DNA of 64,000 bases, from the NCBI GenBank assembly GCA_964016885.1, contig OZ024740.1, positions 138,570,001 through 138,634,000 on the forward strand, written 5' to 3'. The translations under genes and the position numbers were made by a program. Under the pieces are notes generated by a model. That model ran no database searches. It saw nothing but the letters and a program-made list of their open reading frames with translations, and was not told the DNA's origin. Each line of letters opens with the position of its first letter. Position 1 is the stretch's first letter. This stretch comes from Eledone cirrhosa. Taxonomy: Eukaryota. Below, one piece after another: positions 30,312 to 63,710 of this stretch.

Positions 30312-30324
30312 TGTATATATGCTG

Positions 30325-31900
<1,576 letters not shown>

Positions 31901-60606: not shown

Positions 60607-60651
<45 letters not shown>

Positions 60652-60655
<4 letters not shown>

Positions 60656-60793
60656 GGGTAGTAGAGTGTGTAATAGGAACAAGTATGACCCCGACGGCAG
60701 GGCTCAAGCTGTTTCGATGACTATTTCTGGACTAAAAAGTCCAGAAATACCCGTCGATACGGCTTGAGCTCTGCCGTCGGGGTCATACTTGTT

Positions 60794-60873
<80 letters not shown>

Positions 60874-61071
60874 AACAAGTATGACCCCGACGGCAGAGCT
60901 CAAGCCGTATCGACGGCTATTTCTGGACTTTTTAGTCCAGAAATAGTCGTCGAAACGGTTTGAGCCCTGCCGTCGGGGTCATACTTGTTCCTATTACACA
61001 CTCTACTACCCTAAGTATTGAGTACTTTGGTGCGTTATGGTCCACCTGGTTGCTTACCGCAATTCCTTCGT

Positions 61072-61072: not shown

Positions 61073-61112
<40 letters not shown>

Positions 61113-61269
61113 CAATAATAATAAATTTGAAGGCTAAAATCCAAAGAGGGCTCGATGAGGATAAATATATATCAAATATATAAGAACCGTAGAGCAACCG
61201 TAAACGGTGAAAGCAGCGATTCTTTGCTTAAACTTTAATCTGTTATTTTAATATATATATATATATATA

Positions 61270-62765
61270 TACATTATGAAGAGAGAAGAAACATTTAGAT
61301 ATAATTAGTAATAAAATGTATCATACCTAAACTGTTCCTAAATTCCTCGACTACGTAGTTTCGTGGCATAAACAAAAACAATATATCAAAGATATAGAGT
61401 CCTTGCGAGGTCTGCCGACTTATCAAGAGGATACCTCATTTTACTAGTCTCAAGAACGCGTCTACACGACGTGAGAAAAAATCCCAAAAGGCGGAGGGGG
61501 AGATAGTCACGCGATATAACGGTCGAGAAACAGAGCTAAGCCTCTTATAACCACGAAGAAAATACCACGGAGGCGGAGGGGGTATTCATATCGAGGCCGT
61601 AGAAGAGGTAGTGAAGAAGGCGAGAAGTATGAGTAATGGAAGCCTTCCAGTTGTCCCCACACCTCAAAGATTGCTCGACCAGAGGGAGTTATTAATATAT
61701 TTAGAAACACACAGATACATGCGGACGCACACATATATACATGAATGCATCCGCACCCAACTGTGAGTTAAGGGTGCCAACTTCACCGATGTTGCTCAAT
61801 GAATGACTGGGACAGACCAATTCAGTTTGAACTAGACTGAACCAGTATCAGAGTTAAAAATACATTATGAAGAGAGAAGAAACATTTAGATATAATTAGT
61901 AATAAAATGTATCATACCTAAACTGTTCCTAAATTCCTCGACTACGTAGTTTCGTGGCATAAACAAAAACAATATATCAAAGATATAGAGTCCTTGCGAG
62001 GTCTGCCGACTTATCAAGAGGATACCTCATTTTACTAGTCTCAAGAACGCGTCTACACGACGTGAGAAAGAATCCCAAAAGGCGGAGGGGGAGATAGTCA
62101 CGCGATATAACGGTCGATTGGGTGCGGATGCATTCATGTATATATGTGTGCGTCCGCATGTATCTGTGTGTTTCTAAATATATTAATAACTCCCTCTGGT
62201 CGAGCAATCTTTGAGGTGTGGGGACAACTGGAAGGCTTCCATTACTCATACTTCTCGCCTTCTTCACTACCTCTTCTACGGCCTCGATATGAATACCCCC
62301 TCCGCCTCCGTGGTATTTTCTTCGTGGTTATAAGAGGCTTAGCTCTGTTTCTCGACCGTTATATCGCGTGACTATCTCCCCCTCCGCCTTTTGGGATTCT
62401 TTCTCACGTCGTGTAGACGCGTTCTTGAGACTAGTAAAATGAGGTATCCTCTTGATAAGTCGGCAGACCTCGCAAGGACTCTATATCTTTGATATATTGT
62501 TTTTGTTTATGCCACGAAACTACGTAGTCGAGGAATTTAGGAACAGTTTAGGTATGATACATTTTATTACTAATTATATCTAAATGTTTCTTCTCTCTTC
62601 ATAATGTATTTTTAACTCTGATACTGGTTCAGTCTAGTTCAAACTGAATTGGTCTGTCCCAGTCATTCATTGAGCAACATCGGTGAAGTTGGCACCCTTA
62701 ACTCACAGTTGGGTGCGGATGCATTCATGTATATATGTGTGCGTCCGCATGTATCTGTGTGTTTC

Positions 62766-62774
<9 letters not shown>
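61270..62774. mobile_element. Retrozyme-like non-coding 591-nt monomer concatemer: about 1.4 units on minus (61270-62117) joined to about 1.1 units on plus (62118-62774)
   Basis: Period 591 on both arms (HHR starts 61344/61935; TTGGGTGCGG at 62118/62709). One HHR per unit, (TA)n on both flanks. Confidence 0.8.
62447..62534 (+). ncRNA. Type I hammerhead, U3-A8 core (copies at 61344-61431 and 61935-62022 on minus)
   Basis: TCCTC-TTGATAA-GT(C)GGCA...TGCCAC-GAAA-CTACGTAG-TC-GAGGA. Predicted cleavage after C62529. Confidence 0.85.
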
Positions 62775-62797
<23 letters not shown>

Positions 62798-62800
<3 letters not shown>

Positions 62801-63710
62801 ATAATAATAAATTTGAAGACTAAAATCCAAAGAGGGCTCGATAAGGATAAATATATATCAAATATATAAGAACCGTAGAGCAAATATTTATTAAAATAAC
62901 AGATTAAAGTTTAAGCAAAGAATCGCTGCTTTCACCCTTAACGGGATCTTTTGAAACTAACAAAGTCAATCTGTAAACGCAGAAGTGGATATTTCAAAAA
63001 ACGTTGCAACCGGAGGAAGACAGGAAGACGATACTTTTGTTCGTGGAAACGTTCCCTTCACAAAACATACAGGTAATATGTACTTACCTATGCAAATAAG
63101 TAATGGTATAAACATAACATATACTTACATGCATACCCATTCTTTTCGTTACCCTCTAAGAAGGAATATGACGTCACTTTCAGCTTATATCTGGAGTCTA
63201 AAAGACAACCACACCCAATATAAGTTACACTGGGAGATCCTAGCTAGAGCTGGATCGTATAACGGTAATAAAAGACCATGTGACCTCTGCACCGCTGAGG
63301 CCCTGGAAATACTCTACGCCACAGACCACATCTTAAACAAAAAATCTGAGGCAATTTCGGCTTGTAAACATAAATTGCACAAAACTTTCCTGTATTACAG
63401 CCCCACGTTATATCCTAACGGATAGTACGATCTATACGTGGATATTTTACGTCTTGATGTGGTAGCTAAGTATATGTTTTGTTTATACCATTACTTATTT
63501 GCATAGGTAAGTACATATTACCTGTATGTTTTGTGAAGGGAACGTTTCCACGAACAAAAGTATCGTCTTCCTGTCTTCCTCCGGTTGCAACGTTTTTTGA
63601 AATATCCACTTCTGCGTTTACAGATTGACTTTGTTAGTTTCAGAAGATCCCGTTAAGGGTGAAAGCAGCGATTCTTTGCTTAAACTTTAATTTGTTATTT
63701 TAATAAATAT
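62798..63710 (+). mobile_element. 5'-truncated Hydra-type Penelope-like element with inverted 3' segment (62798-63127) and HHR variant at 63636-63686(+) / 62908-62958(-)
   Basis: 63128-63425 encodes HTHSFRYPLRRNMTSLSAYIWSLKD...LHWEIL...CDLCTAEALEIL...LNKKSEAISACKHK. HHR AGTTT-CAGAAGA-TCCC GTTAA GGGT-GAAA-GCA..TGC-TT-AAACT. (TA)n flanks. Confidence 0.85.

Follow-up and report, generated by a model that had tools for sequence, protein, structure and literature searches.

A 591-nt hammerhead retroelement without protein-coding capacity in (TA)n tracts of Eledone cirrhosa, probably inserted by twin priming on a single RNA template

We analysed a window of 64,000 nucleotides of Eledone cirrhosa DNA. 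A non-coding unit is inserted there as two arms that meet head to head and run outwards into (TA)n (Table 1). Unit phases are counted from the base after the predicted cut, position 62530 being phase 1. The left arm spans phases 414-591, one full turn and then phases 1-80; the right arm spans phases 180-591 and then 1-245. The preliminary description of this DNA had reported a period of exactly 591 in each arm with nearly identical copies, and we found the same, with one substitution (61479 versus 62070) and zero gaps. It had also described outer ends that meet (TA)n via TAT/ATAT common to the unit, which is the case at both ends of this locus, and a unit that is non-coding. The longest stop-free frame of the circular unit has 86 codons, and tblastn revealed no similarity of the unit to PLE (Penelope-like element) proteins (best E 4.9). 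The GC content is 41% (245/591), and the fold of the circular unit has a z of -7.1 against 30 shuffles. Two hammerheads are present in the left arm alone, so a transcript of this locus would have to be of the minus strand to yield a full monomer (61939-61349).

Table 1. Features in and around the insertion (window positions; for the arms, the strand is that of the hammerhead)
Feature	Position	Strand	Remarks
Left arm	61269..62117	-	849 nt, 1.44 units; its outer 3' end, 80 nt beyond the predicted cleavage site, is the "short" one of the two fixed ends
Right arm	62118..62774	+	657 nt, 1.11 units; its outer 3' end, 245 nt beyond the predicted cleavage site, is the "long" one of the two fixed ends
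Head-to-head inversion junction	62117..62118		unit phases 414/180; microhomology absent at this junction
(TA)n target remnant, left	61251..61268		
(TA)n target remnant, right	62775..62797		
"Tail" between the two fixed ends	62610..62774	+	165 nt; strongly structured, z -5.2 and -5.9 (two overlapping pieces)
Hammerhead copy, type I, U3/A8 core, extended stem II, palindromic stem III	62447..62534	+	descriptor match at 62448-62533; predicted cleavage after C62529
Second hammerhead copy	61936..62021	-	descriptor match; predicted cleavage after 61940
Third hammerhead copy	61345..61430	-	descriptor match; predicted cleavage after 61349
Predicted 591-nt ribozyme-to-ribozyme monomer	61349..61939	-	inferred from hammerhead coordinates
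Inverted, internally deleted Hydra-type PLE (family 1), separate insertion	62798..63710		86-nt tail; no homology to the 591-nt unit
PLE family 1 mini-insertion, separate (tail arm and short arm)	61113..61252		repeat families D9, D11
Second coding Hydra-type PLE family, 3' part	30320..31780	+	U3/A8 hammerhead at 31595-31686

The hammerhead consists of stem I (CCTC/GAGG), the core UUGAUAA with U3/A8 replacing C3/G8, a stem II with a long extension, GAAA, and stem III, which is a palindrome, CUACGUAG; the predicted cleavage site is GUC. The descriptor is loose, and 4 of its 8 matches in the window are AT-rich look-alikes. The earlier claim of one well-formed type I hammerhead per unit stands as far as every unit has a type I motif. 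The word "well-formed" has to be qualified: the U3/A8 core is non-canonical, and the fold of the 110-nt monomer motif is not more stable than that of its shuffles (z -0.75). No Rfam hammerhead is among the best 150 of 260 matches (E<=1). Stem III pairing between two hammerhead copies is strong (-14.3 kcal/mol). The core and stem letters are 38-40/40 identical in a sister family (see below) that is 74% identical elsewhere, and the pairing is kept in 97.5% of 243 alignment cells, compared with 34-52% in slid controls. The same alignment includes zero two-sided compensatory pairs and does not exceed the shuffle control. Judging from these sequence comparisons, the ribozyme is under constraint. 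PLE hammerheads of Schistosoma, with U3-A8 covariation and a large helix II, are reported to act as dimers and to cut weakly, PLE-type minimal hammerheads being poor cutters (PMC4209133). For Xenopus retrozyme dimers, cleavage is reported as absent in 8/9 (bioRxiv 10.64898/2026.07.22.740005). About 25 more hammerhead-like motif types, many of them with a palindromic stem III, occur in a total of 1 Mb of TA-rich flanking DNA (loci L031-L204).

Two coding PLE families have copies in the window. The adjacent PLE and the one with a hammerhead at 31594 had been called Hydra-type, and both carry Hydra-clade motifs. The latter hammerhead, which had been described as having the same architecture as that of the unit, is of the U3/A8 type and is part of a coding PLE family in 20/20 loci. 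The endonuclease C-terminus of the adjacent family 1 copy lies at about 63123-63424 (+); at 63630-63690 a putative hammerhead-like fold, with CAGAAGA as the core and UU as the site, can be drawn by eye. Fragments of the second family are also found at 60649-61071. Family 1 has a 709-aa ORF with RWR, DKT, CxCX5C and CxxC/CxH motifs, and the (TA)n-targeting Hydra clade is described with those motifs, with RWK for RWR (PMC8557442, section 11). No Pfam domains were found in the PLE ORF; its Atlas clusters are HTH_animal/GIY-YIG/RVT. Family 1 (L195-L204, L223-L228) is very abundant and young, with 57,180 candidates, ORFs of 656-726 codons, a 3.24-kb period and a tail that stops about 40 nt upstream of the start codon. 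Its copies L224_0 and 62798-63710 have an internal deletion of the 3' UTR of about 700 nt, which is present in both arms of L224. The second Hydra-type family (L263-L282) has 62,280 candidates and its own fixed ends; its 3' UTRs are 75-80% alike between most copies, and its ORF 96-98%. A pattern count of a ribozyme variant of this family gave 61 matches.

Adjacency had been taken to mark the partner PLE. We do not retain this suggestion, because the unit has no sequence in common with either of the neighbouring families, and what all of them share is the (TA)n target. No PLE sharing unit sequence was found in family 1 (10 full-length loci), in family 2 (20 loci) or among 18 ribozyme matches, and no PLE pLTR related to the unit was found among the two Hydra families and other PLE fragments within 1.39 Mb. 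A target-site duplication, considered for 61080-61260 and 62766-62883, was ruled out: a separate PLE mini-insertion is involved.

The unit occupies roughly two thousand TA microsatellites of the genome. Exact (TA)n junctions were counted by pattern 1,889 times for the short end and 982 times for the long end, and 0 times with reversed-pattern controls. A match search of the 3.0-Gb genome returned 663 candidates; 40 of them were scored, with 120 matches at 97-100% identity. A 23-nt ribozyme stretch has 7,458 exact copies, common to the 591-nt family and the sister family. For closer study we took 38 best-matching loci (36 kept), 80 loci in chromosome order (60 via the short end and 20 via the long end), 18 ribozyme matches, 25 sister-family loci and a replication set of 34 loci, i.e., about 200 of several thousand loci. 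We left out L033 (a duplicate of L031), L068 (contig end), the second half of L077 and arms with less than 90% identity. L031 and L033 are a single insertion found in two small contigs, and in L077 a 2.55-kb local duplication includes the whole insertion.

The 591-nt insertion is one copy of a dispersed multi-copy family, in which every tandem unit has its own type I hammerhead. The insertions consist of the unit only, between TA tracts. The family is young, with thousands of insertions that are 95-100% identical. Its longest array has 6.9 units, and 35/80 unselected loci (about 4 in 10) have a single arm. A unit was taken as continuous with a PLE ORF if the two lay no more than 1.5 kb apart with no TA tract in between, and this is the case in 0/198 unit-bearing loci. 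This agrees with the earlier reading of the unit as a non-coding, dispersed, PLE-mobilised element similar to hammerhead retrozymes, and with the view that it is not the pseudo-LTR or UTR of a coding PLE. The sister family is older. It has 1,825 candidates and about 74% identity to the 591-nt family; its period is 580 nt in L184, and its two ends are the same (L171-L194). Intermediates between the two families, at 80-91% identity, are L209, L212, L214 and L221.

The outer ends of the arms are at phase ~80 or ~245, and the inner ends are scattered across the unit. The 97 inverted loci comprise 88 with one short and one long end (one local duplicate, L077, being counted twice), 1 long+long, 0 short+short and 8 with a broken or cut end; short+long thus accounts for 88/89 classifiable loci. 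In the first set of 72 inverted loci the counts are 64, 1, 0 and 7 (broken end), respectively. The replication set has short+long in 24/25, the remaining one being cut by the fetched window. TA loose ends occur at both fixed sites in contigs of public runs, the best of which may be the assembled sample. Microhomology of at least 3 nt is present at 24/61 clean inner junctions, versus 5% by chance. PLE family 1 behaves in the same manner, with TAT at both ends and with 28 short+long, 0 same-type and 8 other end pairs.

The different starts and stops of the two arms had been explained by circular permutation. Random permutation is ruled out by the two fixed phases of the outer ends, so the earlier argument fails: what was seen as permutation is two fixed sites (80/245), which equal the known PLE tail. 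The whole PLE insertion footprint is present, i.e., two fixed 3' ends (tail), an inverted 5'-truncated copy and the (TA)n target. For PLEs, Craig et al. 2021 (PMC8557442) describe a 5'-truncated copy in inverted orientation together with a tail that only one end has. Work in vitro describes the tail as the stretch between two RT start sites, with both target strands cut and extended and a dimer predicted (PMC11167929). For PLE inversions, self-priming on an antisense template has been proposed (PMC3846280). Twin priming on the sense strand fits our data better, because the outer 3' ends are fixed and the inner junctions are variable.

Haplotypes link the two arms of each insertion. Arms of one locus are discordant at 6/980 polymorphic-site comparisons (63 loci) versus 22% between loci, and in the replication set at 6/331 versus 23% (pooled, 12/1,311 versus 22-23%). 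There are 29 variants that occur in one locus and fill every covering unit of it, 16 of them across both arms. At sites covered at least 3 times (59/118 loci), the variant is in all units 130 times, a class that includes shared subfamily markers, in one unit 94 times, and mixed 8 times; the corresponding replication counts are 44/16/4. We counted 84 distinct locus-fixed variants, and many haplotypes are the same in all of their 2-9 units. Recurrence of single-unit variants between loci was seen 16 times versus 11.8 expected (p=0.10). Arrays that start at two fixed points and share variants make one RNA template per insertion likely. The variant pattern also needs a monomer bottleneck followed by re-expansion, and rolling on a circle provides both. 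Among unselected arms, 109/125 run through the predicted cleavage site and 57/125 exceed one unit; both arms are longer than one unit in 17/72 loci. All 349/349 passes of the cleavage point are of exact length, and eight junction positions show zero deletions in ~283 passes each. Rolling reverse transcription of a 591-nt circle had been suggested before. Its circle is likely right on the ground of haplotype sharing, although the permutation on which the suggestion was based fails. Back-junction reads at C62529, offered earlier as proof of a circle, cannot serve as such, since genomic tandems carry the identical junction. For the same reason we rejected closed contigs of 621 and 620 nt (runs X4 and X5) as evidence of a circle: such a loop also arises from tandem copies in the genome. 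These contigs match 62118-62774, have 591+30 and 590+30 nt and one haplotype each, and come from runs labelled with other organisms.

The inherited variants have a strand-asymmetric spectrum in the first sample. Change direction was set by two diverged copies, which left 13/77 distinct locus-fixed substitutions unoriented; the 64 oriented ones include 25 A>G versus 10 T>C. Single-unit changes include 13 A>G versus 29 T>C of 177 (contrast with locus-fixed, p=6e-4). The other substitution classes do not differ between locus-fixed and single-unit changes (p=0.18). G is depleted 5' of A>G sites (1/25 versus 26/113, p=0.03), and such depletion is reported as an ADAR motif in all species (PMC5625713). 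G is enriched 3' of the sites (8/25 versus 15/113); according to the same source, a 3' G is the vertebrate ADAR motif, while invertebrates have a downstream A. The best single candidate for an edited template is L095 (G000:C1:50595493-50600823), with arms of 4.9 and 2.7 units. Eight differences separate it from the closest haplotype; 6 of these are A>G, and they are present throughout the 7-8 units of the two arms. The non-CpG A>G sites 107, 277, 340, 395, 537 and 547 recur in 3-7 haplogroups. The replication set has 14 A>G versus 4 T>C of 40, largely at the same sites as the first sample; no A>G excess was seen among its new variants (3/21), and locus-fixed and single-unit changes were equally rich in A>G (p=1.0). 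The sister family lacks an A>G excess (2 versus 4 of 15), A/G sites are not extra homoplasic by the four-gamete test (96/253 versus 70/190 for the others), and A>G sites show no significant excess in paired positions (p=0.16). From these sequence patterns, we put at about even the chance that some inherited A>G variants are ADAR edits of the template. PLE family 1 has another spectrum, with 47 T>C versus 7 A>G among 158 insertion-shared variants on the sense strand, 41 of them in the UTR; the T>C excess possibly reflects RT wobble errors. Editing of an antisense template was rejected here, the ADAR context being absent (p=1.0) and the contrast with single-copy variants disappearing once the set was enlarged (p=0.17).

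We are confident that the element is a non-LTR retrozyme with a PLE-type ribozyme and a full PLE footprint. Twin priming on a single template is likely as well, and the template was probably a circle, as far as sequence can tell. Overall we favour, as the probable explanation, a protein-free 591-nt hammerhead retroelement pasted into (TA)n by the RT/endonuclease of a Hydra-type PLE, both cut ends being primed on one RNA that is probably circular. By analogy with known retrozymes, tandem loci would be transcribed, cut by dimeric hammerheads and ligated; circRNA intermediates are reported for animal retrozymes (PMC7229834). A PLE enzyme would then cut the two strands of a TA tract, and their 3' ends would pair via TAT with the RNA, one at 80 nt and the other at 245 nt past the ribozyme site, where the ends are observed. 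Both cDNAs would circle the same template for 0.1-6.9 turns, rolling being suggested by the observed lengths and shared haplotype. Joining of the cDNA ends by short microhomology, which is observed at inner junctions, would produce the tails-out inversion.

Other templates would explain a part of these data. The most serious, although rather unlikely, is a linear multimer that is left uncut after transcription from a homogeneous source array and is used in the same twin priming, the hammerhead being dispensable for transposition. In the only in vitro PLE system, that of Frangieh et al. (PMC11167929), ribozyme mutants are indeed reported to transpose normally, zero reads to end at the cleavage site and uncut RNA to be the main substrate; the start sites there are alike on both strands and not homologous to the target, which also speaks against our scheme. 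A homogeneous multimer likewise yields matching arms, 12 mixed sites were observed, and arms longer than one unit occur in PLE family 1 as well (3.24-kb period). However, arms of up to 6.9 units occur, and copying from a linear template cannot make arrays longer. The many homogeneous haplotypes, with their 84 locus-fixed variants, the recurrence of single-unit variants at no more than chance level and the conservation of the ribozyme between the two families also speak against this template. A cleaved linear monomer on which the RT jumps repeatedly from the 5' end to the 3' end, mimicking a circle, accounts equally for the monomer bottleneck, and arm 5' ends are slightly enriched near the cleavage site (14/125, p=0.07). 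Template jumps usually leave indels behind, whereas every pass of the cleavage point was exact and the eight junction positions had no deletions; we regard this alternative as improbable.

Still less probable is a unit that is the pseudo-LTR of an unsampled coding PLE, with arrays lengthened and homogenised in DNA by unequal crossover and gene conversion. The ribozyme and the footprint are of PLE type, the sample covers only some 200 of several thousand loci, and Xenopus retrozymes are reported to resemble pLTRs (bioRxiv 10.64898/2026.07.22.740005). Nevertheless, none of the 198 loci is continuous with a PLE ORF, the 74%-identical sister family with its 580-nt period is unit-only too, and the asymmetry of inherited variants in the first sample is unlike that of single-unit variants. 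An assembly chimera at 61269-62774 has a negligible probability: its own inversion junction is covered by contigs only, with no spanning read seen, but the same layout with different junctions is found in 96 other inverted loci, and one insertion recurs with an identical junction in two contigs (L031, L033).

A bolder version of the circular-template reading, which we consider possible but hold tentatively, is that a PLE dimer primes both strands on one closed 591-nt RNA and rolls, and that ADAR edits of the circle are written into all units. If it is true, a single twin-primed rolling mechanism would account for tandem copies, inversions and tails in all PLEs, and RNA editing would be a mutational source for a viroid-like genomic replicon. 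The origin of tandem, inverted and tailed PLE insertions and the role of the retrozyme circle as a template are treated as open in the sources we used (PMC8557442, PMC7229834, bioRxiv 10.64898/2026.07.22.740005). Our literature search, which had subscription journals and supplements outside its scope, found no description of twin-ended retrozyme insertions or of edits in them. The element class is already known, so the interest lies in the mechanism rather than in the element. The family yields exact predictions: two starts (80/245 nt beyond the cut) on a single molecule, each used by one of the DNA ends, and repeated passage of the ligation site, checkable with a short synthetic RNA. Thousands of near-identical insertions provide statistical power.

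Hydra-clade PLEs (PMC8557442, PMC3846280) are similar to the 591-nt element in having a partial tandem plus an inverted 5'-truncated copy with a tail at one end only, a (TA)n target and a hammerhead upstream of the ends. In contrast to them, the element has no ORF, its tail is 165 nt long versus their 30-40, and its unit is repeated up to 7 times. The Anolis Poseidon PLE studied in vitro (Frangieh et al. 2024, PMC11167929) also has two internal RT starts that bound the tail, and both target strands are extended. Unlike it, the 591-nt family has a non-coding template, uses one site per arm almost always, and its ends have TAT microhomology to the target. The Cercyon PLE hammerheads of Schistosoma (PMC4209133) share with ours the U3-A8 covariation, an enlarged helix II and a palindromic helix III suited to dimers, and opposite-strand hammerhead pairs 100-700 bp apart are reported there. 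They are mostly single motifs of truncated PLEs, whereas here the unit is an independent tandem one, and the 591-nt motif has a helix III and a helix II with a 45-nt structured extension.

The 591-nt element is best filed as an animal non-LTR retrozyme. It has in common with those elements non-coding, dispersed tandem units that lack LTRs, with one type I hammerhead each and GC below 50%, and for them a circRNA template and PLE mobilisation have also been proposed (PMC7229834; bioRxiv 10.64898/2026.07.22.740005). Its length exceeds the 150-450 bp given for animal retrozyme units by Cervera and de la Pena 2020 (PMC7229834). The preliminary description regarded 591 nt as unusually long, which no longer applies, since Li, Clavereau and Pollet 2026 report units of 51-972 bp, with a PLE origin (bioRxiv 10.64898/2026.07.22.740005). 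The 2020 definition demands a canonical hammerhead with loop 1-loop 2 contacts, and the 2026 one admits minimal types too; the 591-nt ribozyme is of the U3/A8, long-stem-II PLE type instead of the canonical one. A homologous pLTR was not found for our unit in the search described above, and its circle and cleavage are predicted. Inverted two-ended insertions are absent from PMC7229834 as far as its available text goes (the word "inverted" occurs 0 times). It is the PLE-type ribozyme and the inverted two-ended footprint that set the 591-nt element apart from known retrozymes.
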